Shown in pieces: positions 19,145 to 31,250 of a stretch of DNA of 64,000 nucleotides (the stretch's first letter is position 1; each line of letters opens with the position of its first letter). The stretch is from a virus, in the IMG/VR virus record IMGVR_UViG_3300040959_000809; one strand, written 5' to 3'. The translations under genes and the position numbers were made by a program. Under the pieces are notes generated by a model that did no database searches, was not told where the DNA came from, and was given only the letters and a program-made list of their open reading frames with translations.

Positions 19145-20059
19145 ATGGATATTTTTCTTTTTAATTCTAAATTAAATGAGGATTATCTTGCTGATCTGTT
19201 TATCGGCGAAATGCTTATATCGGATAAAATTGGTAGGATATATACTAACCACCTTCCTCCTTATCTGTTTACTGATTTTAATGAAAATCGTCCTCTGTAT
19301 GGTCGAGGGTTTACAGTATTTAAAAAGATGGATCCTAAGCTCAAGAACAGAGTAACAATAATTCCACACGGCCAGATTCCTGAGTTTATCCAAAGCCAGA
19401 CCGCTAAAAAGATCATATACACGAGTGTTCATCGTAGGGCATTTCCAGAGAATCACCATATGGCTGATTATTTTGGGCTTGTATCTGAAGCCTATGATAA
19501 AAAGGACATTATAGTAATTGATGGTGAGGATTATGAAACAGTTAAACACAATGTCGCCGAGCAATCAACCTATTATAAACGAGAGCTTTTAAAGCACCAG
19601 GAAACTATTGCTAGTCCTATTTCGTTTTCATTCCCTCGCTTCCATAAAAAACCAAAACTGGCGGTAAAGGAATATTTACTAGCACCCTGTGATCCTAGGT
19701 TTAGAGCTTCATATAAGTTTAATACGGAAGAGCAATACTATTCTCAATATTCAAAGGCATTATTTGCAGTTACAAAGAAAAAAGGTGGCTGGGATTGTAT
19801 GCGGCATTATGAAATACTTGCATGTAATTGTCTTCCATACTTTTTATGCATCGAAGAGAAACCAGACACGACAATGTCAACGTGGCCTATGGAATTACAA
19901 TTAGCTGCAAATCATCTATACGAGAGAATGTCAAGATCTAATATAAAGGACTTTGATCTTTATGAATGGGAGACATTAAATACCAAATTTCAAAAGTGGT
20001 TTAGAGCTGAAGGACACAGCAACATATATTTAAAGGTGATAAATGAATCCAAAACTTGA
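19145..20059 (+). CDS. putative glycosyltransferase (exostosin/GT47-like C-terminus)
   Basis: IIVIDGED, YYKRE and GGWDCMRHYEILACNCLPYF. Confidence 0.55.
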   Translation: MDIFLFNSKLNEDYLADLFIGEMLISDKIGRIYTNHLPPYLFTDFNENRPLYGRGFTVFKKMDPKLKNRVTIIPHGQIPEFIQSQTAKKIIYTSVHRRAFPENHHMADYFGLVSEAYDKKDIIVIDGEDYETVKHNVAEQSTYYKRELLKHQETIASPISFSFPRFHKKPKLAVKEYLLAPCDPRFRASYKFNTEEQYYSQYSKALFAVTKKKGGWDCMRHYEILACNCLPYFLCIEEKPDTTMSTWPMELQLAANHLYERMSRSNIKDFDLYEWETLNTKFQKWFRAEGHSNIYLKVINESKT

Positions 20060-20876
20060 AGGCTTTCCTAGCTGTTATGTAATTAATCTTGAAGAGGCAG
20101 AAGACCGCCGAGCATATATGAAAGAGCAATTTGCCAAACACGGCATTAAAAACTATCATATAAAACAATTTAAAAGATTTGATGACGCTAATCTGTGTGT
20201 AAAGGCACCACAAGAAGTGGTGGATGTATTAGCACTTGGTCTTACCACTTCTCATTTATTGATGATTAAATGGTGGTATGAAAACCGCACTGAAGATGTG
20301 TGTGCTATTATGGAGGACGATTGTGATTTTGATTTAATTCAGCATTGGAACTTTAAATTTAGTGATTACATCCGACAGTTTGGACCGCTTTGGGATGCAA
20401 TACAATTGTCTGTGGTTCATGAAGGCTGGCCCGTGATGGCACCGAGAGTTCGAGATCCTTGGGATCATGGGTTGCAATGTTATATTATTAAAAGACATTA
20501 TGCCAAAAAGATTGTTGAGTATTATTTTAATCAAGGTGCCTCCAATATTATTAGTATTAGAATGGCCTGGTGTCAGCGAGAGCCGTTTATGGTTAAATTA
20601 AAACCAACGCCTGAGAATATTGTATTAGGGCTAGGGCATGTATATACACATCCAATTTTTAATCATAATGTACACGATTTCAAATCAATGAACCCGACTG
20701 ATAATGTTGGTCTGGCAAAGAGACAACATGAAAACTCGGAATCAACATATGTATATGTCAAGGAATGGTGGGAAAAGATAGGAACTAATTCTACATTGGA
20801 ACAGTTATTTGATTATGAGTACTGTTGCCCAGCCCATACGAATCAAAAGTTCATGTATATACCTATTGATGTGTAA
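20043..20876 (+). CDS. GT25-like glycosyltransferase
   Basis: YVINLEEAEDRRAYM...SHL...IMEDDCD...YII. Confidence 0.7.
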   Translation: MNPKLEGFPSCYVINLEEAEDRRAYMKEQFAKHGIKNYHIKQFKRFDDANLCVKAPQEVVDVLALGLTTSHLLMIKWWYENRTEDVCAIMEDDCDFDLIQHWNFKFSDYIRQFGPLWDAIQLSVVHEGWPVMAPRVRDPWDHGLQCYIIKRHYAKKIVEYYFNQGASNIISIRMAWCQREPFMVKLKPTPENIVLGLGHVYTHPIFNHNVHDFKSMNPTDNVGLAKRQHENSESTYVYVKEWWEKIGTNSTLEQLFDYEYCCPAHTNQKFMYIPIDV

Positions 20877-20884
20877 GGATAAGA

Positions 20885-21511
20885 ATGGAATACAAGTTTA
20901 CAAATAAATGGTTTAGAAACTCAACGACATTTTCCGTGTGGGAAATACTTTTACGAGAGTGGAAACCAGAGCATATTATGGAAATAGGCTGTTACGAAGG
21001 CCAATGCACTACATATATGATAGAACAAAATGATTGGTCTGACGATGTGAAGCTTTGGGCAGTTGATACCTGGGAAGGTAGCATGGAACACACTGATGTA
21101 AATATGAGTGATGTTGAAAAGCGATTTGATTCAAATATAAAATTGGCCAAAACAAAAGCAAAACGAAGCACCCAGATTATTAAAGAAAAGACATATTCCC
21201 ACCGGCTTATGAGTGCTATGATGGATAGATATGAAGGCAAGTTTGATTTGATTTATGTCGATGGGTCACATACAGCACCTGATGTTTTGCTAGACGCTAC
21301 ACTCGCCTTTAAACTCATTCGCCCTGGTGGTGTAATTATATTCGATGACTGGCATTGGAAGCCTTGGAACGACGAGCGATTTGATAATCCCAATAATACA
21401 CCTAAAGTTGCTATTGATACATTTGTAAATATACATTGGGACAAATTGAGTGTAATTAATATCGGAAACAAAACTGCATTAGATCAACTGTTTATTAAAA
21501 AGAATATGTAA
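20885..21511 (+). CDS. class I SAM-dependent methyltransferase
   Basis: MEIGCYEG, AVDTW, IYVDGSH and GGVIIFDD. Confidence 0.85.
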   Translation: MEYKFTNKWFRNSTTFSVWEILLREWKPEHIMEIGCYEGQCTTYMIEQNDWSDDVKLWAVDTWEGSMEHTDVNMSDVEKRFDSNIKLAKTKAKRSTQIIKEKTYSHRLMSAMMDRYEGKFDLIYVDGSHTAPDVLLDATLAFKLIRPGGVIIFDDWHWKPWNDERFDNPNNTPKVAIDTFVNIHWDKLSVINIGNKTALDQLFIKKNM

Positions 21512-21512
21512 A

Positions 21513-22391
21513 ATGAAATTGTTTATCTATAACCCTGACTTTACTCCTGAAACATTAAAGGATCTTATTATAGGTCATTTAATATTTTGTGGTAATGTAG
21601 AAATATATGCAAATTCTCTCAACGCTGCATATTTTAATGATTGGGGAAATGCAACAAACCATTCGGTTTATAAAAACATCCCGGCATGGAAAAAAGAAAG
21701 AATTACTTGGATCTCACCTAAACAAGCTCATAATTATGATTTTGACATGGTTTTATTTTCCGACATCAATTGGCTATCCAAAAATATGAATGCTCCTTTT
21801 GTGGAAAAGATATTTAAAAAATATAATAAAAAGAATATTGTTGTGATTGACTCTACAATGTCACATTCCCCACATTTAAATGTTGCTAGAAAATCGACCT
21901 ACTACAAAAGAGAAATTGGCGAGCAAAAACATAAACTGGTGCATCCTATACACCATGCATTTCCTGTATATAGGCAACGATTTACTCGTGAAGTAAAAAC
22001 ATCACTTTTGGCCCCATATGATTCCAGGTTTCTACCTAATTCAAATGTGTTTAAAGTAGAGCATTATTATTATGTGCAATTTCTTAAGGCAATGTTTGCA
22101 ACAGTGACTTATAACGATCAATTAGGCTGGGATACTATGCATGTGTATGAGATTATAGCATCACATTGTGTACCATACTTTCCAGACATAGAGAAAAAAC
22201 CTAAATATATAATGCACGACTACCCGGTGGATTTACAATTAAAGGCTAATAAGCTATTTGAATCATTAATCATCGGCTCCGAACAAATATCAATAACCCA
22301 AGAATATCACGATATTCGAGACAAATTTGAGGAATGGTTTCAAGAATGCGGTACAAGTTACATTTATCATAAAATGTTTCAGCCAACGTAA
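21513..22391 (+). CDS. putative glycosyltransferase, paralog of 19145
   Basis: IVVIDS, YYKRE and GWDTMHVYEIIASHCVPYF. Confidence 0.55.
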   Translation: MKLFIYNPDFTPETLKDLIIGHLIFCGNVEIYANSLNAAYFNDWGNATNHSVYKNIPAWKKERITWISPKQAHNYDFDMVLFSDINWLSKNMNAPFVEKIFKKYNKKNIVVIDSTMSHSPHLNVARKSTYYKREIGEQKHKLVHPIHHAFPVYRQRFTREVKTSLLAPYDSRFLPNSNVFKVEHYYYVQFLKAMFATVTYNDQLGWDTMHVYEIIASHCVPYFPDIEKKPKYIMHDYPVDLQLKANKLFESLIIGSEQISITQEYHDIRDKFEEWFQECGTSYIYHKMFQPT

Positions 22392-22442
22392 TTTTTTGTT
22401 GACATTCGTAAATGGACGTGATAGTATAGTGGAGAACAAACA

Positions 22443-22652
22443 ATGCTAATAGACAATACAAATGGTGAGAACATGGGTTCAATGGAAAATAGAATGGAAT
22501 CTCTGGTCCGAAAGCATCGGGATCTGGATCAACGTATTATTGCAATGGAAGCTGAAAAGGCTCCGGATCTGTACATTAATACTCTCAAAAGAGAAAAACT
22601 TCTTTTGAAGGACGAAATCACCAAAACAGAAAAACTCCTTTTGGAGGGATAA
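22443..22652 (+). CDS. DUF465/YdcH-like small coiled-coil protein
   Basis: LVRKHRDLDQRI...LKREKLLLKDEI; promoter TTGACA(22399)-17 bp-TAGTAT. Confidence 0.7.
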   Translation: MLIDNTNGENMGSMENRMESLVRKHRDLDQRIIAMEAEKAPDLYINTLKREKLLLKDEITKTEKLLLEG

Positions 22653-22658
22653 AGTTAT

Positions 22659-22736
22659 CTCCGCTTAGCTCAGCTGGATTAGAGCAAGTGCCTTCTAAGC
22701 ACTAGGTCGGGGGTTCGAATCCCTCAGCGGAGGCCA
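22659..22736 (+). tRNA. tRNA-Arg(TCT)
   Basis: Acceptor CTCCGCT/AGCGGAG, anticodon loop CTTCTAA, GGTTCGAATCC T-arm, encoded CCA. Confidence 0.95.
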
Positions 22737-22743
22737 AATACAC

Positions 22744-22819
<76 letters not shown>

Positions 22820-22919
22820 AAATAAAAAAAAGGTTCGAACGATGGATATAGATACTTTTATACACCATTGGATTGATGACCCATGCGATGATGTAACACA
22901 CTGGATAGGATTTATATAA

Positions 22920-23090
22920 ATGTGGACTTTAATAATTTTCAGTATTGTTACTGACATGGATGACTATGGTATTAGACATACAATGTATGACGATTATAAA
23001 ACCAGAGAGGCTTGCTTGATTCAAGCCTCTGTTCTGGAAGCAACATTTGAGGAGAAGGAAATAACTCTTTGTTATTTTGGTGATGAATAA
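22920..23090 (+). CDS. small hypothetical protein, paralog of 23091
   Basis: Manual 56 aa ORF MWTLIIFSIV...YDDYKTREAC...LC; stop abuts the next ATG. Confidence 0.55.
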   Translation: MWTLIIFSIVTDMDDYGIRHTMYDDYKTREACLIQASVLEATFEEKEITLCYFGDE

Positions 23091-23276
23091 ATGTGGACAT
23101 TAGTTTTTATATATCTTTATGAAGGAATTTCATATTCTGAAACATATGATACATATAATAAAATGACAGATTGTTTTTATGCTAGAGAAGCATTAGGACA
23201 AGAAAACTCTGGGACATCAGGGCGCTTTATTCCTGGAACACAGGCGATTTGTGTGTATATGGGAGAAGTAGAATGA
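23091..23276 (+). CDS. small hypothetical protein
   Basis: MWTLVFIYLY...YDTYNKMTDC...IC. Confidence 0.55.
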   Translation: MWTLVFIYLYEGISYSETYDTYNKMTDCFYAREALGQENSGTSGRFIPGTQAICVYMGEVE

Positions 23277-23878
23277 ATTATGATTTTATAGAGATTGGAA
23301 CATCTGATTTTGACACGTGCATTCAATCCAGTAATGCCGGCGAAGCTGGATTATCAATTGAACCATTAAAGGTTTATCTTGATAGGTTACCGGACAAGCC
23401 AAATGTCACAAAACTAAATTGTGCAATTTCGCTTGACGGCACAGAATATAAAGATAAAATATATTGGATACACCCAGATGATCTTGCAAAGAATGGTTTG
23501 CCTGGTTATATAAAGGGCTGTAATAGAATTGGTGAGCCTCATATTCAGCATTTGACCGATAGGGTAAAGAACACAAATGCCGAGGTGCTTGCAACAGAAA
23601 TTGATATGATCCCACTGTCAAAGATCTTTGATGACTATAATGTCGAGGGGGTTAAATTACTAAAACTAGATACAGAAGGTGCTGATGTTCATATACTGAA
23701 ATCATTTTTACCTTATTTGTCAGAACGCCCTAAGGAACATCGCCCGGACGAAATATTTTTTGAAGCAAATCAGCTCACAGCTGACGAATTAGTTTTGGAA
23801 GTAATTGACCTATATAAGGATATGGGATATAGAATGGCACAGCGGACCTACCAAAATGTTCGACTAATAAAGGTTTAA
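23273..23878 (+). CDS. FkbM-like methyltransferase
   Basis: FIEIGTSD, SIEP and LKLDTEGAD; likely start is ATG 23273. Confidence 0.75.
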   Translation: MNYDFIEIGTSDFDTCIQSSNAGEAGLSIEPLKVYLDRLPDKPNVTKLNCAISLDGTEYKDKIYWIHPDDLAKNGLPGYIKGCNRIGEPHIQHLTDRVKNTNAEVLATEIDMIPLSKIFDDYNVEGVKLLKLDTEGADVHILKSFLPYLSERPKEHRPDEIFFEANQLTADELVLEVIDLYKDMGYRMAQRTYQNVRLIKV

Positions 23879-23880
23879 TA

Positions 23881-24579
23881 ATGAGTGATTTACATAGATA
23901 TGCTTTAAATAATAATGGAAAAATGCTTCAAAAGTGGTTGCATTACTTTGACATCTACGAAAGACATTTTTCAAAATTTAGAAACAAAAAACCAGTGATG
24001 CTTGAAATTGGTGTTCAAGGTGGTGGTTCATTAGATATGTGGAAATGGTATTTTGGCGAAGGGTGTCAGATTATAGGAATTGATATTGACCCAAATTGTA
24101 AGCAATATGAATCTGATAATGTAGACATATTCATTGGTAGTCAATCTGATCCTCAGATCCTTAAAAAGATTATGGCCAAGTATCCACAGATTGATATAGT
24201 GTTAGACGACGGTAGCCACTTCTCTAGCGATATGAAAGATTCCTACGATATGTTATATCACCACGTAGACGAGGATGGTGTGTATTTTATTGAGGACACA
24301 CACGCTTGTTATTTGCCCATGTCACCCTATAATGGTGGGCTTAAAAAGTCTGATAGTTTCATGGAATTTGCCAAAGATAAGATTGATGATCTTCATGCAA
24401 ACTCAATACATACATGCATGACAAATACAATAAAACGTAGAAAACAAAACATACCTTACGGACCAGCAATATCTGATATTACTCGGTCAACTGATAGCAT
24501 TCATTTTTATGATAGTATTGTAGTATTTGAAAAGAGGCGTCAAGGAGATCGTAGGCAAATCATTACTCAAAGTCTCTGA
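23881..24579 (+). CDS. class I SAM-dependent (sugar O-)methyltransferase
   Basis: LEIGVQGGGSL, GIDIDP, GSQSD, LDDGSH and YFIED. Confidence 0.85.
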   Translation: MSDLHRYALNNNGKMLQKWLHYFDIYERHFSKFRNKKPVMLEIGVQGGGSLDMWKWYFGEGCQIIGIDIDPNCKQYESDNVDIFIGSQSDPQILKKIMAKYPQIDIVLDDGSHFSSDMKDSYDMLYHHVDEDGVYFIEDTHACYLPMSPYNGGLKKSDSFMEFAKDKIDDLHANSIHTCMTNTIKRRKQNIPYGPAISDITRSTDSIHFYDSIVVFEKRRQGDRRQIITQSL

Positions 24580-24628: not shown

Positions 24629-24656
24629 GGGGGGAGCAATGCTTCCCCCCTTTTTT
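24629..24656 (+). terminator. intrinsic terminator between convergent operons
   Basis: GGGGGGAGC-AAT-GCTTCCCCCC followed by TTTTTT. Confidence 0.8.
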
Positions 24657-24810: not shown

Positions 24811-25004
24811 TCTGATCTCTCCTTTAAAATATCTTTCATTACATTTGATGCTGTGTTAGTAAAGCATCTTGGTGCAACACTGTGAATAATAAGTGCTGGC
24901 ACCAAGAGCTGTAATTTAATGGCCGCTTTTAAGGCATGCCCCATGTGTTGTAATCCAGTTTCGCCAACTTCATCTAAGTGAGCTTTACATTGTTTACTTA
25001 ACAT
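24807..25004 (-). CDS. hypothetical protein
   Basis: 65 aa, coupled; HLDEVGETGLQHMGHA. Confidence 0.55.
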   Translation of the reverse strand: MLSKQCKAHLDEVGETGLQHMGHALKAAIKLQLLVPALIIHSVAPRCFTNTASNVMKDILKERSE

Positions 25005-25305
25005 TTTTCTTTTTGCTTTCTAACTTTTGTATCCGTGTCTCCAAATCATCAATCTTTTTGGTGACTTTTGGATATCGTTTACGCCATGCCTCTGGATCAT
25101 CCTGAAGCCATTCCCATCCAAAGCGGTCCACCAGGTGGTCCAATAGGCCATCAAATTTACCCATCAAATATAGAGCGGCTTTTGTATTTCGGAACCATGC
25201 TAAAAAGGCGGCACCTACAATGGATCCACCAATGGCAGTATAGATCCACAGCGTATCTCCAAACATCCTTGTGAGCATTTCCATCATGTTATATCCTTTG
25301 TACAC
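24994..25305 (-). CDS. single-pass membrane protein
   Basis: TM segment WIYTAIGGSIVGAAFLAWF and a C-terminal coiled coil. Confidence 0.6.
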   Translation of the reverse strand: MYKGYNMMEMLTRMFGDTLWIYTAIGGSIVGAAFLAWFRNTKAALYLMGKFDGLLDHLVDRFGWEWLQDDPEAWRKRYPKVTKKIDDLETRIQKLESKKKNVK

Positions 25306-25994
25306 CTAGTGTAATTATTCATTCCGTGATCAGCTGCACCATCCAAGAAACCGGATCTCCAACCCCTCCATCTATCCTTAAGTAATTGCCAACCAGTCAT
25401 TTTGCGAACATTTCCATAAAAGTTAATGTATTGTAATGAACCGTGATGCTTATAGCCCATAATGAACAATGGCACCTTGGTGACAATATCATTATTATTA
25501 ACATACCTAAGGTGAGTCGTAGAAATATTTTTTACAAATTTACGAGTACCAACTCTTGGTGAGCCGAAGGTGGTTAATTGTTCTACCTTACGTTCCTCTT
25601 CAAAGCGAGATGTAGCAATAGTAGCCATCGCAGCACCTAATGAGTGCCCAGTGATGTACATTCTCTTTGTTTTGTGATTATTATGGTGTTTTACTATATC
25701 AGCCCAAAGTTTATCACATTCATTTCTGAAACCTGAATGTACCAAACCGTGAGTCATAGCACCTCGTGGAATAGCATTTAAATCTGCTAATACATCACTT
25801 AGTTCTGAAGGTTCTGTACCTCGGAATGCAAGGACATATTCCTCCTTGTTCCATACAGCATGGCATTGAGCACCATCATTTTCAAAGAATTTATGACCCG
25901 TGTAACCCAAGGCCTTCATTTTTGGTTTTGCCTTTGCACTATCCAAATATGCAAGTTCAGCTAATTGTGCCATTTTATGACAAACGTTTGACAT
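25284..25994 (-). CDS. class 3 lipase (alpha/beta hydrolase)
   Basis: LAFRGT, VHSGF, ITGHSLGAA (GxSxG), TFGSPRVG, NNNDIVTKVP and H. Confidence 0.9.
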   Translation of the reverse strand: MSNVCHKMAQLAELAYLDSAKAKPKMKALGYTGHKFFENDGAQCHAVWNKEEYVLAFRGTEPSELSDVLADLNAIPRGAMTHGLVHSGFRNECDKLWADIVKHHNNHKTKRMYITGHSLGAAMATIATSRFEEERKVEQLTTFGSPRVGTRKFVKNISTTHLRYVNNNDIVTKVPLFIMGYKHHGSLQYINFYGNVRKMTGWQLLKDRWRGWRSGFLDGAADHGMNNYTRCTKDIT

Positions 25995-26683: not shown

Positions 26684-27229
26684 TTAGTTTCCTGATAATG
26701 GATTATCCAATGCTTCTTGTAATGTTTTTCTTAAATCTGTATCCAGTTTATTCATTTTATTATCAATTCGTTCTTCTGTTTCACGCATTGTGTCTCTGGA
26801 ATCCTTTTCTGATTCTCTTGTCAGATCAGATAATTGTCTTAGTCTGGTATCAATGTCATCCTGAATATTCTTTACACGAGAACTTGTAGAATCAGTAATT
26901 CTTTCTACTCTAATAATATCATCCTTTAAGCTGTTTTTAATATCCCGTGTATAATCAATTGCATCATCAAGCTTTCGTTCGATGGAAAGATTCCTGGCTT
27001 CTACAGCCTCCAAGTCCAATACCTCTAGCTTTTCACTCATTTCTTGAAACGCTTTATATGATTCAAATGCTCCATATAGTGTTCCTAGCAAAGCACTCAC
27101 TACAGCGAAAAGTGCACCAATAGTAGATGGTGTTAGTGTAATTCCAAATAACTTCATTTTGGTGTTCTTGAGGTTCTCAACCTCATTATCGAAAGCCTCT
27201 AAACCTTCTCCCAGATCTTTATCAGCCAT
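26684..27229 (-). CDS. membrane-anchored coiled-coil protein
   Basis: TM segment IGALFAVVSALLGTLYGAF followed by a long heptad-rich region. Confidence 0.7.
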   Translation of the reverse strand: MADKDLGEGLEAFDNEVENLKNTKMKLFGITLTPSTIGALFAVVSALLGTLYGAFESYKAFQEMSEKLEVLDLEAVEARNLSIERKLDDAIDYTRDIKNSLKDDIIRVERITDSTSSRVKNIQDDIDTRLRQLSDLTRESEKDSRDTMRETEERIDNKMNKLDTDLRKTLQEALDNPLSGN

Positions 27230-27238
27230 AAGTTACCT

Positions 27239-27661
27239 CTAGTTTTCAAATTGTAATTGTCTTAATTGTTGTATTTCCTGTTCTAATTTCATTACCTCCA
27301 GCCTTTTCTTTTTTAATTCAAGCTGATACAATTCATTACAATTAATTCTAGCTTTAGGTTTAGCACCAAGCGGAATAATTATTCTAGCATATACCCCAAC
27401 ATCCTTAGGGCTACTACCAAGACTGTCATTATAATCATTAAAGCCATTATTATTTTGGTTCCTAGATATAATACCTGTGACTCCAAATTCAGTATATGTA
27501 GCTGAACCAATAGCATTCTGACAGTCCAAATCCCCTGCTCTGAATTTATCATATTGATGATTTCCAGGCGCAGTTGGGATTTGAAGGTTTAGTGAACTTG
27601 AATCTGCGTTTGCAATAGATACCATGCATAACGTAGCAGTCACTACCAAAAATCTCAACAT
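27239..27661 (-). CDS. secreted protein with a C-terminal coiled coil
   Basis: Sec signal peptide ending SIANA; two Cys. Confidence 0.65.
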   Translation of the reverse strand: MLRFLVVTATLCMVSIANADSSSLNLQIPTAPGNHQYDKFRAGDLDCQNAIGSATYTEFGVTGIISRNQNNNGFNDYNDSLGSSPKDVGVYARIIIPLGAKPKARINCNELYQLELKKKRLEVMKLEQEIQQLRQLQFEN

Positions 27662-27671
27662 CTCATTTTTC

Positions 27672-28058
27672 TCACTTTACTTTAGAACATATTTTTGAGG
27701 AGACAACGGTAGGCCCTCCCCCCTTTAGTAATTTAGATCTTGTACAAACATACCCAACACTATTGACATCTCTATCTCTAATGAATACTGTAAATGATTT
27801 TCTGTCCAAGTAGTTTACTTTAAAGATTCGTTCAGTTGAAGCAAAAGGAATTTGCTCCCATTCTTTGTCAAATACTGATATTTCATAATAGAGTACATCT
27901 GATCTTCTATTAAATAGTTTAAGATTAAGTTGTTTAACCTCCGGCATATATGAATTTCTAAGTTCAGGATACGCCGGAGTCATTTCATGCGACATTGCCT
28001 TGTTAGCTAGAAAAAGCATCATAAGACAAATCAGCACCGATAAAATCAAATATCTCAT
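27672..28058 (-). CDS. secreted Ig-like protein resembling a PapD-N chaperone domain
   Basis: Signal peptide ending KAMS-H; TPAYP...LNLKLFN...YYEISVFD...W...RIFKV...FTVFI...YVC. Confidence 0.5.
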   Translation of the reverse strand: MRYLILSVLICLMMLFLANKAMSHEMTPAYPELRNSYMPEVKQLNLKLFNRRSDVLYYEISVFDKEWEQIPFASTERIFKVNYLDRKSFTVFIRDRDVNSVGYVCTRSKLLKGGGPTVVSSKICSKVK

Positions 28059-28073
28059 AATAAAAGCCTATTT

Positions 28074-28592
28074 TTAGTTAGCGATGCATTCTGCTTCAAC
28101 GATAGATGTATATGTACCTGCAGGAAATGCAGTATTAAACCCATACGTAGCTGTCGAGGATACTGAAAACCAGGTAGTTCCTGCCACAGATAAATCATAT
28201 TCTGTTGCGTTATCAAATTCTACCTTTGCCGCTTCATACCCAGCCATATTAACATCTGATGTATTGGAAACAGTTGTGGATCCAGTCCAAGTAACCGTGT
28301 CAACTAGGGTCGGCGCTGTCGAGAAGGATAATGGATATCTAATCCTTGCCGTATAGTAATCTGCCTGAGCCACGTCGAAACGAATGACGGGGCTAATACC
28401 ACCGTCAGCACTCTCGGTACTCAACTCATTGGGTGTAGGGTTACCATATACACCTGCAGTGTCGGTAAAGATTGAACACTTAGCTTGAACATTTCCTATA
28501 ATAGGTATGTCCTCTGCCGCTGCCACAGAAACATAACCAATTGCAGAAGCTAGGCTTATTCCTAATCCTGTAATTATTGGTTTGATATTCAT
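28074..28592 (-). CDS. secreted protein resembling a Csu/spore-coat-U chaperone-usher pilin
   Basis: Signal peptide ending AAA-E; IIGNVQAKCSI...YG and C-terminal FPAGTYTSIVEAEC. Confidence 0.5.
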   Translation of the reverse strand: MNIKPIITGLGISLASAIGYVSVAAAEDIPIIGNVQAKCSIFTDTAGVYGNPTPNELSTESADGGISPVIRFDVAQADYYTARIRYPLSFSTAPTLVDTVTWTGSTTVSNTSDVNMAGYEAAKVEFDNATEYDLSVAGTTWFSVSSTATYGFNTAFPAGTYTSIVEAECIAN

Positions 28593-28612
28593 AAATTTAC
28601 TCCGTTTTAGTT

Positions 28613-29539
28613 TTAGTTTTTATATTGTGATCTGACCATATCATTATGGACAGCATCTGAAGCCAAATTACTAAGAGCTCTTCTGTTGTCAGGAATATTA
28701 GAGTCTGATAATTTAACTGTTTCTGGATAGGCACCCCCAGGAATCTGTGCCTGATAATAAGTATTAAACTCTGGTACCGCTGATAGTCGTAACATTTTTT
28801 CCTGTTCTTTTGCAGTAGTAACAAAACCTTCTATGTCCATGCCAGCATTTAATTGTCTGATAGGATCATCTTCAGTGGCCTCTTCCTGCTGTGTCTTTCT
28901 TTGTTCTTTTTCAGTCACATCTTCTTCCTCATCACCCATTTGGTCCCTATTCATTACCAATTGGACGTATTCATCATAGTAAGGGTCACCTGGTTGTGGA
29001 GGTGCTTCAAAGAGTCCTTGATCTTGCATCCATGCAAATAAAGCATCCTCATACCCAGGACATTCTGGATTTGAAATTACTACATAACACTCATCATACT
29101 TATAGCTGTATATGACAGTAGGGTTGTTAATAGTACCTTCACCTTCCGTTTGAATGGATCCTGTACCAAATGCTGTTGCTGGTGTATTTTCAATCGAAAT
29201 GAGCCTACTAATTGTGTTACCAGGTAAACCAGACCAATCGTCGGTACTTCTGAAAACATAGCCTGGCCCTTGTGCATTTTCATTCTGCACATGAACTAAT
29301 AAATTATCACCCGGTTCTTTATCTACTGTATAGCGATAAAAAATATTACCGATAGTCAAGCCCGTCTGTGCTGGTAGTATATTAGCCATTACCCAGCTAA
29401 GTCCATTTGCGGCCGCATTATTTGTGGTACTGTAGACTTCAGTCCCCGTCCCTGTTACCCCTATTTCTTCAGAGTAACAAAAGGAGGAGGAGAGTGCCCA
29501 AAATACCACCGCCGATAAGAGTGCTCTTTGTCTCTTCAT
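28613..29539 (-). CDS. secreted protein with a beta-rich N-domain and an acidic C-domain
   Basis: Signal-like N-terminus; DECYVVISNPECPGY; acidic, low-complexity tail. Confidence 0.65.
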   Translation of the reverse strand: MKRQRALLSAVVFWALSSSFCYSEEIGVTGTGTEVYSTTNNAAANGLSWVMANILPAQTGLTIGNIFYRYTVDKEPGDNLLVHVQNENAQGPGYVFRSTDDWSGLPGNTISRLISIENTPATAFGTGSIQTEGEGTINNPTVIYSYKYDECYVVISNPECPGYEDALFAWMQDQGLFEAPPQPGDPYYDEYVQLVMNRDQMGDEEEDVTEKEQRKTQQEEATEDDPIRQLNAGMDIEGFVTTAKEQEKMLRLSAVPEFNTYYQAQIPGGAYPETVKLSDSNIPDNRRALSNLASDAVHNDMVRSQYKN

Positions 29540-30038
29540 TTACTACCTTATTTTTGTTTCCAGGCATTTGATCCTGGTTTTCTTCCCAAGCAGCTTTAGC
29601 TTCTACACCAATTTTACCATCAAAGGGACATGGTGTGCCGGCATTCATCATTGCATTAAAAATACGCTCATCCTGACACATTACAGAAACAGCTGCCACC
29701 TTCATGCCCATATCATATAAAGTCTTAGCATTTTTTAACTTTTCACAATTCATATCACGAACAGTTTTACCTGCTGAAATTCCCAATATTTGAGTCTGCA
29801 CTGCCCCAGCAATACCTACGGTACACAGATCAGAATTTGCCGTATTAATCTGTGGAGATATAGCTGAAGGAGGAGCGGTTTTTACTGTTGTGGTGGAATC
29901 ACTTGTCGAGTTAATTGTACTCTGTGTAGTTGATTCTGTTTTAATAGTATCACTTGCTGTGCTGTCTGCTTCCTGACCTAATGCAAAATTAGGCAAGCAT
30001 AACATCATTAACAAGAACATCATTTTAGATTTAGTCAT
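29469..30038 (-). CDS. secreted, C-terminally anchored Cys-containing protein
   Basis: Signal peptide ending FALG-Q, S/T-rich linker, 4-Cys core, and hydrophobic C-tail GGGILGTLLLLLLL. Confidence 0.7.
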   Translation of the reverse strand: MTKSKMMFLLMMLCLPNFALGQEADSTASDTIKTESTTQSTINSTSDSTTTVKTAPPSAISPQINTANSDLCTVGIAGAVQTQILGISAGKTVRDMNCEKLKNAKTLYDMGMKVAAVSVMCQDERIFNAMMNAGTPCPFDGKIGVEAKAAWEENQDQMPGNKNKVVNEETKSTLIGGGILGTLLLLLLL

Positions 30039-30076
30039 AGTATTAATCCCGTGTAATCATTATTTTATCACATGCT

Positions 30077-30084
30077 TATTTATA
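30077..30084 (-). promoter_or_regulatory. T4-type late promoter TATAAATA heading the secreted-protein operon
   Basis: tatttata on the + strand, 39 bp upstream of ATG 30038. Confidence 0.7.
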
Positions 30085-30284: not shown

Positions 30285-31250
30285 ATGGAACTACTCACAA
30301 TGTGGAGTCTTATCGGATTCCTGCTTGCTGCGTATGCAGTTATCGCCAACGATTCAGTACAAACGCTCGGTACTTGGATGGCATCAAACAATGAGCGATT
30401 TAATTATAAAGTATTATGGGCAGCGGCATCCGCTGTTTTATTGTATACACTATGGTATGGTTGGTATATGAATGGTGGCGATATATCTTATGGCCGTTTG
30501 AATAAAATTCCATTCCAAGATGTACAATGGTATCATGCCGCGGCACCTGCCATTCTTGTTTTACTAACACGAATGGGTGTTCCGGTTTCAACATCATTTT
30601 TAGTCTTATCAGTATTTGCTTCAACCTTTGTGTTGGAAAAAATGCTTATGAAATCAATTATGGGCTATGGTGTTGCTGCAGCATTTGCTTATGCTGTGTG
30701 GTTTGCTATCCATAAGTATTTTGGTAAATGGTACGACGAAACTCAACCAGTATCTGAAAGCAATAAAAAGTTTTGGCGTATTGCCCAATGGGTAGCAACA
30801 GGTGGATTATGGTTTACTTGGTTGTCGCATGATATTGCTAACATTGCAGTATTCCTACCACGTGCCATTCCTGTAGACCTAATGGTGTTTATCAGCATTG
30901 TGTTTGTTGCCGGCTTGTTCTTTATGTTTAGAGAAAAAGGTGGTAAGATCCAGAAGATTGTTTTGGAAAAACATAATACTCGATATGTACGGTCAGCGAC
31001 ACTAATTGACTTGTTCTATTGGTTATGTCTGTACTTTTTCAAAGAACTGAATGATATTCCTATGAGTACCACGTGGGTATTTGTTGGGTTACTTGCAGGT
31101 CGTGAATTGGCTATGGCTACATATTTTGGTAAAAAGAAAACAAAATCAGTATTTCCCTTGGTCGCTAAAGACTTTGGTAAAATGATGGTAGGACTTGGTG
31201 CCTCGGTTGCGTTAGTATTACTGATTCATTATGTTATAAACCCGTCATAA
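30285..31250 (+). CDS. multi-pass membrane transporter, PiT/PHO4 (phosphate/sulfate permease)-related
   Basis: About 9-10 TM segments. IANDSVQTLGT and SHDIANIA resemble the two repeated GAND/HGANDVANA PiT signatures; also PVSTS and PMSTT. Confidence 0.6.
   Translation: MELLTMWSLIGFLLAAYAVIANDSVQTLGTWMASNNERFNYKVLWAAASAVLLYTLWYGWYMNGGDISYGRLNKIPFQDVQWYHAAAPAILVLLTRMGVPVSTSFLVLSVFASTFVLEKMLMKSIMGYGVAAAFAYAVWFAIHKYFGKWYDETQPVSESNKKFWRIAQWVATGGLWFTWLSHDIANIAVFLPRAIPVDLMVFISIVFVAGLFFMFREKGGKIQKIVLEKHNTRYVRSATLIDLFYWLCLYFFKELNDIPMSTTWVFVGLLAGRELAMATYFGKKKTKSVFPLVAKDFGKMMVGLGASVALVLLIHYVINPS

Follow-up and report, generated by a model that had tools for sequence, protein, structure and literature searches.

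A conserved late gene cassette of marine T4-like phages that may build an usher-less protein assembly in the host envelope

In chaperone-usher systems the usher is an outer-membrane protein of about 800 amino acids (aa), and the canonical periplasmic chaperone is made of two immunoglobulin (Ig)-like domains, PapD_N and PapD_C. The nearest conceptual precedent for an envelope or fibre module carried by a phage is the curli (type VIII secretion) operon of pelagimyophages and HTVC023P-type podophages, which encodes CsgG, CsgF and CsgA/B, is absent from the hosts, lies in a variable region between replication and structural genes, and has a debated function (PMC7029224, PMC9599517, PMC9004378). 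Here we analyse P1 to P6, a cassette of six consecutive genes with their promoter at 26684-30084 of IMG/VR virus record IMGVR_UViG_3300040959_000809, a stretch of 64,000 nucleotides (nt) that is referred to as the window. The cassette is not a canonical chaperone-usher pilus or Csu system; it is an undescribed phage envelope module, and no description of it was found in the literature searched. Our preferred explanation, to which we assign a probability of about 40%, is that this late phage cassette builds an usher-less protein assembly in the periplasm and outer envelope of the infected cell. An earlier note, made from the DNA letters alone, had proposed a periplasmic or surface appendage formed late in infection; this is partly supported, the surface appendage being one possible reading.

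The six genes, their promoter and their distribution

The window derives from an uncultured marine T4-like myophage, as indicated by its genes for gp43 DNA polymerase, a gp46-like nuclease subunit, topoisomerase II subunits, gp41 helicase, gp32 and UvsX. The nearest named phages are cyanophage S-RIM12 and phage C48C1, with a polymerase identity of only 44%. The cassette occupies a variable stretch flanked by a block of glycosyl- and methyltransferase genes and by a divergently transcribed membrane protein. All six open reading frames (ORFs) listed in the earlier note were recovered on the minus strand with the starts it gave, and the promoter it placed at their head is present:

30077-30084, minus strand: T4-type late promoter motif TATAAATA, 39 nt 5' of the P1 ATG
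29469-30038, minus strand: P1, 189 aa
28613-29539, minus strand: P2, 308 aa
28074-28592, minus strand: P3, 172 aa
27672-28058, minus strand: P4, 128 aa
27239-27661, minus strand: P5, 140 aa
26684-27229, minus strand: P6, 181 aa

The genes are tightly packed, with gaps of 20 nt (P2-P3), 15 nt (P3-P4), 10 nt (P4-P5) and 9 nt (P5-P6). P1 and P2 overlap by 71 nt (29469-29539), and in all related loci by at least 65 nt; the shared segment codes for the hydrophobic C-terminal anchor of P1 in one frame and for the P2 signal peptide in another. Because gene callers often put the start of P2 downstream, its signal peptide is lost in annotation. P3 and P4 share a reading frame, with two stop codons between them.

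Across the window, TATAAATA is no commoner than chance (8 copies against 6.5 expected). Its position near P1 is conserved in relatives, where 39 of 63 distinct related loci carry it, in most of those 18-52 nt upstream of P1; in many of the loci that have no motif near P1, another gene lies directly 5' of P1. From this pattern the cassette is predicted to be transcribed late, from TATAAATA at about -10 before the first gene. A second late promoter ahead of P3 was ruled out, since in relatives the internal copies of the motif encode Tyr-Lys-Tyr within P2, away from its junction with P3.

P1 to P5 each begin with a basic and then a hydrophobic segment running up to a small-x-small site. These N-termini are conserved in the family alignments and agree with hydropathy, in line with the five Sec-type signal peptides described previously. 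In the mature proteins, cysteines that are invariant or almost so number 4, 2, 2, 2 and 2, respectively, always an even count. On account of the signal peptides and paired cysteines, P1 to P5 are read as exported periplasmic proteins, which are expected to leave the cytoplasm by Sec and to fold in the oxidising periplasm. Searches of P1 to P6 against Pfam, NCBIfam and PHROGs returned no named family, P1 matching phrog_20531, a family of unknown function. Alignment profiles of P2 to P5 found nothing below an E-value of 0.2 among sequences of the PDB, and in the ESM Atlas P2 had no match and P5 matched only viral hypothetical clusters.

The operon proposed in the earlier note proved to be a fixed cassette in related loci. 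The order P1-P2-P3-P4-P5-P6 was invariant across the 85 loci fetched, of which 50 hold full sets, the incomplete ones being explained by contig ends. P6 always lies 3' of P5, and in about half of the loci unrelated genes stand between the two. For P3, IMG/VR has at least 590 loci and the metagenome protein clusters exceed 415; the P5 family has more than 1,500 members in its three best-matching ESM Atlas clusters. With none of its six proteins in a named family, the cassette is among the more widespread unexplained gene sets of marine phages.

Among 185,579 species genomes, the cassette was found on three contigs (L092, L093 and L094) of two CONCOCT metagenome bins only. Since these are the sole matches, the cassette is regarded as a phage-borne module. 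The bins are labelled Saprospiraceae and Melainabacteria; the contigs are probably mis-binned phage DNA and not evidence of a host, and host inference from species genomes was dropped. A link to phages of SAR11 is suggested by sequence similarity to Pelagibacter podophages. Within P1, the core that holds four cysteines shares 54% identity (72% in the DNA) with gp46 of HTVC033P and with gene 001 of EXVC032P, and P6 is 29% identical to gp49 of HTVC115P, which suggests gene exchange or a common gene pool.

Between P2 and P3, divergent cassettes in other T4-like contigs (L091:2344-2856; L095:2994-3485) contain two additional genes, of 163-170 aa and 51-64 aa. In L091 the larger one, of 170 aa, was considered as a second P3 and rejected, having no similarity to P3. 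SNase genes inserted in some cassettes encode no signal peptide and were set aside as unrelated passengers.

P3, P4 and P5 as a portable core

When P5 was compared by tblastn with 50,697 named phages, the sole match was the 59-kilobase (kb) siphophage Vibrio phage K251 g3; P2, P3 and P4 had none. Genes 0012-0014 of K251 g3 (L096:3178-4318) are P3-, P4- and P5-like (hhalign E-values of 1e-6, 2e-4 and 2e-13) and sit between head genes and the head-tail adaptor, without P1, P2 or P6. Of the large genes next to this trio, none encodes a signal peptide or matched an usher. Gene 0014 seems to begin further upstream than annotated, as a signal peptide is encoded there in frame. Homologues of the P3-like protein also occur in pVco-14 and vB_VhaS-tm, both cultured Vibrio phages. 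As the trio also stands alone in a Vibrio siphophage, P3-P4-P5 is considered to be a portable functional core.

P3 and P4 were folded by AlphaFold2 as a single-chain read-through fusion, using an alignment of 15 natural in-frame fusions of relatives together with unpaired P3 and P4 homologues. The cores of both proteins were modelled confidently, with a predicted local distance difference test (pLDDT) above 90. P4 folds as one Ig domain (model residues 199-306), measures about 105 aa when mature and has an isoelectric point (pI) of 9.5. According to the model it belongs to the PapD-like/major sperm protein (MSP) fold superfamily, as a seven-stranded s-type Ig sandwich. Comparison by VIA gave SafB (Z 10.6; root-mean-square deviation, rmsd, 2.8; 99 aligned), FimC (10.6), YadV (10.0), CfaA (9.8), PapD (9.2), FaeE (8.9) and CsuC (8.8). 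Nine chaperone-usher chaperones stand in the top 25, and their N-domains match at Z 8.4-10.6. MSP domains match at Z 9.2-10.3 overall, including MOSPD2 (10.3) and major sperm protein (9.7). The PapD-like chaperone of the earlier note is thus upheld for the fold of the N-domain (SafB and FimC, Z 10.6), and not for a full chaperone, because P4 has one Ig domain and generic Ig and MSP domains score equally.

P4 has no PapD_N or PapD_C match in Pfam. In 83 loci it is 122-162 aa long with P5 directly after it, and homologues of at least 245 aa were not found, a weak line of evidence. Cys105 and Cys124 are invariant, as is the His that begins the mature protein (residue 24, motif HExTPTYP). This His is reminiscent of N-terminal His metal sites in some periplasmic Ig-like or cupredoxin-like proteins; no such family was matched.

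P3 is acidic (pI 4.1) and consists of a signal peptide, an N-terminal extension of about 12 residues and a beta-sandwich of about 130 aa. The motifs first noticed at its ends, IIGNVQAKCSI near the mature N-terminus and AGTYTSIV near the C-terminus, are both conserved in the family. In the extension, IxGxVxAxC, the hydrophobic residues alternate, with little or no variation at I31, G33, V35 and C39; the model assigns no strand to segment 27-38, where pLDDT is low to moderate. The invariant cysteines are Cys39 in the first strand and Cys169 in the last. Calling P3 pilin-like of the Csu type, as was done before, was not supported. No SCPU (PF05229) or Fimbrial match was found in Pfam at E-values up to 1, the structural matches are generic, and a P3 profile run against 1.84 billion proteins gave 116 matches, all of them cassette relatives, the distant full-length ones lying in T4-like phage contigs and belonging to no Pfam family. 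Paralogy of P3 with P2 or P4 was rejected by hhalign. P3 is a candidate structural subunit.

The earlier note reported no usher in the window, and our searches agree. No usher match was detected (Pfam, PHROGs) in P1 to P6 or in 28 other window ORFs scanned, including the largest otherwise unassigned ones, and the usher family PF00577 was absent at E-values up to 1 from five related phage contigs of 87-155 kb (estimated completeness at best 89%), the E. coli control being positive. CsgG likewise had no match in P1 to P6 or in these five relatives. A true chaperone-usher pilus, in which P3 would be the pilin, P4 a reduced chaperone and the usher borrowed from the host, would account for the P4 fold and for the pilin-like motifs at both ends of P3. 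We consider it very improbable: P4 has no second domain and no longer homologues were found, PapD_N, SCPU and Fimbrial sequence matches are lacking, P3 has no pilin structural match, and phages as different as T4-like phages and a Vibrio siphophage would each need a host with a compatible usher.

P5 is the best-conserved member across divergent cassettes. Judged from its sequence, the signal peptide leads into a short strand (SLNLxLP), after which come an amphipathic beta-hairpin and, at the C-terminus, an amphipathic helix. The loop at the hairpin tip is hypervariable and varies greatly in length, and the invariant Cys47 and Cys108 are predicted to form a disulfide. Among 36 sequences the signal peptides end in AxA-type sites, with no conserved lipobox cysteine at the cleavage site. 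P5 is therefore not an outer-membrane spanin (o-spanin) by definition; its pattern makes it a candidate anchor or pore of the outer envelope.

In the usher-less assembly that we favour, basic P4 would hold acidic P3 by beta-strand augmentation, in the way that ligands are held by MSP domains and by the first domain of pilus chaperones. The stoichiometric building block would be P3, associating with itself through its N-terminal extension or attaching to P5, and P5 would oligomerise at the outer membrane via its amphipathic hairpin and helix, serving as an anchor or small pore. In the T4-like version, P1, P2 and P6 would tie the assembly to the inner membrane. The assembly would change the outer envelope at the end of infection, either by coating or masking the surface or by weakening it for release.

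Several observations weigh against this explanation. Against P4, generic Ig domains unrelated to chaperones reach scores equal to theirs (CsxA, Z 10.4). For P3, the best VIA matches are generic, namely the C-domain of an amylase (Z 7.9, 70 aligned) and a coat domain of a plant virus (Z 7.5), and no pilin chain is among the structural matches listed. The P3-P4 interaction expected by the earlier note, looked for in the fusion model, gave no confident docking: docking is unsupported because the predicted template modelling score (pTM) of 0.51 is about that of two independent domains, a threshold that is our own estimate. An intrachain bond between Cys39 and Cys169 would place the first and last strands side by side, and a donor strand might then find no open groove. 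Finally, the location and oligomeric state of P5 are read from a sequence pattern.

More tentatively, we suggest as a possibility that P3-P4-P5 is a self-sufficient, usher-free pathway that assembles a polymer or coat in or on the Gram-negative outer envelope, made up of a subunit, its half-chaperone and a small oligomer serving as anchor or pore in the outer membrane, switched on late and carried by unrelated phages (T4-like myophages and Vibrio siphophages). Such a pathway would represent a new class of envelope assembly beside chaperone-usher, curli and type IV or V pili. If the trio does assemble an envelope structure without an usher, it would be a minimal form of chaperone-assisted assembly and, following phage curli, a second example of a new surface or envelope structure conferred on infected cells by ocean phages, with a bearing on lysis, superinfection, aggregation and particle formation in the sea. 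The presence of the trio in cultured Vibrio phages makes the question testable at the bench.

P1, P2, P6 and the genes around the cassette

In P1, a signal peptide and a Ser/Thr-rich linker or stalk precede a strongly conserved helical core, which holds the four invariant cysteines; the hydrophobic tail at the C-terminus (GGG...LLLLLLL) is a probable membrane anchor. P2 has a signal peptide, an eight-stranded jelly roll (about residues 31-153), a Cys-x8-Cys-Pro-Gly-Tyr motif, an acidic helical and disordered linker and a conserved C-terminal helix, LPDNxRxLR...MVRSQY. Its AlphaFold2 model has a mean pLDDT of 79.5, rising above 95 in the jelly roll, for which VIA found generic jelly rolls (best Z 8.2) and Foldseek found Ena2A as the top match together with TNF-like lectins and viral coat proteins. 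P6, which contains no cysteine, has one hydrophobic segment (about residues 34-55) and then a charged helical C-terminal region, as the membrane anchor and coiled coil recognised previously would require. Some 30 residues are predicted to lie in the cytoplasm, before a single transmembrane segment, and about 125 aa to form a coiled coil in the periplasm; this is the layout of an inner-membrane spanin (i-spanin), in topology only and with no family match. P1, by its C-terminal anchor, and P6, by its N-terminal anchor and coiled coil, should therefore both reside in the inner membrane.

The conserved and variable parts of these proteins might be seen as those of a device for receptor masking or superinfection exclusion, similar to Llp of T5, in which the exported proteins bind or cover an outer-membrane or periplasmic component of the host, block competitors and spare progeny from cell debris. 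Every product is aimed at the envelope; the P1 core is extremely conserved, at 54% identity with Pelagibacter podophages, as if it bound a conserved host target; the P5 hairpin loop is hypervariable and the P2 jelly roll is lectin-like. Exclusion genes are usually early, whereas the cassette is late, six genes are many for masking, and no member resembles a known exclusion protein. We rate this explanation as improbable.

Downstream of the cassette on the same strand, the following two features are found:

25284-25994, minus strand: class-3 lipase without a signal peptide (Lipase_3, E-value 2e-23)
24994-25305, minus strand: 103-aa single-transmembrane coiled-coil protein with a weak XhlA match

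Both come after the cassette in 15 of the 85 loci, with the window as a further case. They are possibly linked to the cassette and may be a lysis-related pair. They bear on a different explanation, that the cassette is a lysis device, a spanin-like machine of many parts in which P6 in the inner membrane and P5 in the outer membrane would bridge the periplasm with P1 to P4 as accessories, disrupting the outer membrane after holin and endolysin have acted, and with the nearby lipase and small membrane proteins in the same lysis module. The late-promoter motif, the i-spanin topology of P6 (N-terminus in, one transmembrane segment, periplasmic coiled coil) and the C-terminal amphipathic helix of P5, which could pair with P6, are all compatible with such a device, as are the lipase and the XhlA-like protein directly downstream, the small one- and two-transmembrane proteins inserted between P5 and P6 in some relatives, and the P1 homologue of HTVC033P, four genes from a lysozyme. 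Against it, P5 has no conserved lipobox, known spanins need none of the four extra conserved exported proteins, the Vibrio phage trio lacks P6 and is sited in the head-tail region, and the cassette proteins matched no named lysis family. We rate a lysis device as rather unlikely; if that is nevertheless what the cassette is, it would reveal a novel way for phages to get through the outer membrane.

The remaining neighbours are noted for completeness. At 30285-31250 on the plus strand, divergent from the cassette, lies the gene of a 321-aa polytopic membrane protein with a very weak match to PHO4 (phosphate transporter). The plus-strand block at 19145-24579 contains a glycosyltransferase-25-like gene and several methyltransferases (Methyltransf_24, FkbM and FtsJ-like) and resembles the cell-surface sugar-modification islands of pelagimyophages. 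It is closed at 24629-24649 (plus strand) by a strong GC-rich hairpin and a T run, which face the end of the minus-strand block and are likely to be a bidirectional terminator.

Comparison with known systems

The cassette resembles chaperone-usher systems (PapD-PapK, FimC-FimA, SafB-SafA and CsuC-CsuA/B) in that a small exported beta-sandwich, P3, is encoded beside an exported PapD-like Ig protein, P4, which superposes on the N-domains of chaperones at Z 8.4-10.6; P3 also has an N-terminal extension with alternating hydrophobic residues and Gly, and a last strand rich in G-x-Y. It differs in having no usher and a chaperone of one domain in place of two, in the lack of sequence matches to PapD_N, PapD_C, Fimbrial and SCPU and of a pilin structural match for P3, in being phage-encoded and predicted to be late, and in P1, P2, P5 and P6, which have no counterpart there.

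MSP domains bind extended peptides by strand augmentation, and the MSP proteins VAP-A/B, MOSPD2 and nematode major sperm protein share with P4 a single PapD-superfamily Ig domain (Z 9.2-10.3). Unlike P4, these proteins are eukaryotic and cytosolic, without a signal peptide or disulfide, and there is no sequence similarity between them and P4.

Like the pelagiphage curli operon, the cassette is a multi-gene exported module of envelope or fibre type in abundant marine phages. Its proteins are different, however, with no CsgG or CsgF match in the cassette or the five large relatives and no amyloid repeats, and identity with the published pelagimyophage curli operon was rejected.

Two-component spanins (lambda Rz/Rz1, T4 PseT.3/PseT.2) resemble the cassette in its predicted late expression, in the i-spanin topology of P6 with its periplasmic coiled coil, and in P5 as a small exported partner with conserved cysteines. 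They differ from the cassette in that P5 is no lipoprotein, four further conserved exported proteins are present and the core trio occurs without P6. The Bacillus endospore appendages (Ena) offer jelly-roll or beta-sandwich subunits, an N-terminal connector and cysteines for cross-linking, and Ena2A heads the Foldseek matches of P2. The match is weak (template modelling score 0.42, rmsd 8.6; VIA Z 6.6), Ena is Gram-positive and spore-specific, and no sequence similarity exists.

By their defining tests, the cassette falls outside the chaperone-usher, Csu/SCPU, curli and spanin systems. As modelled for P4, it shares one fold with the chaperones of chaperone-usher systems and, possibly, their logic.

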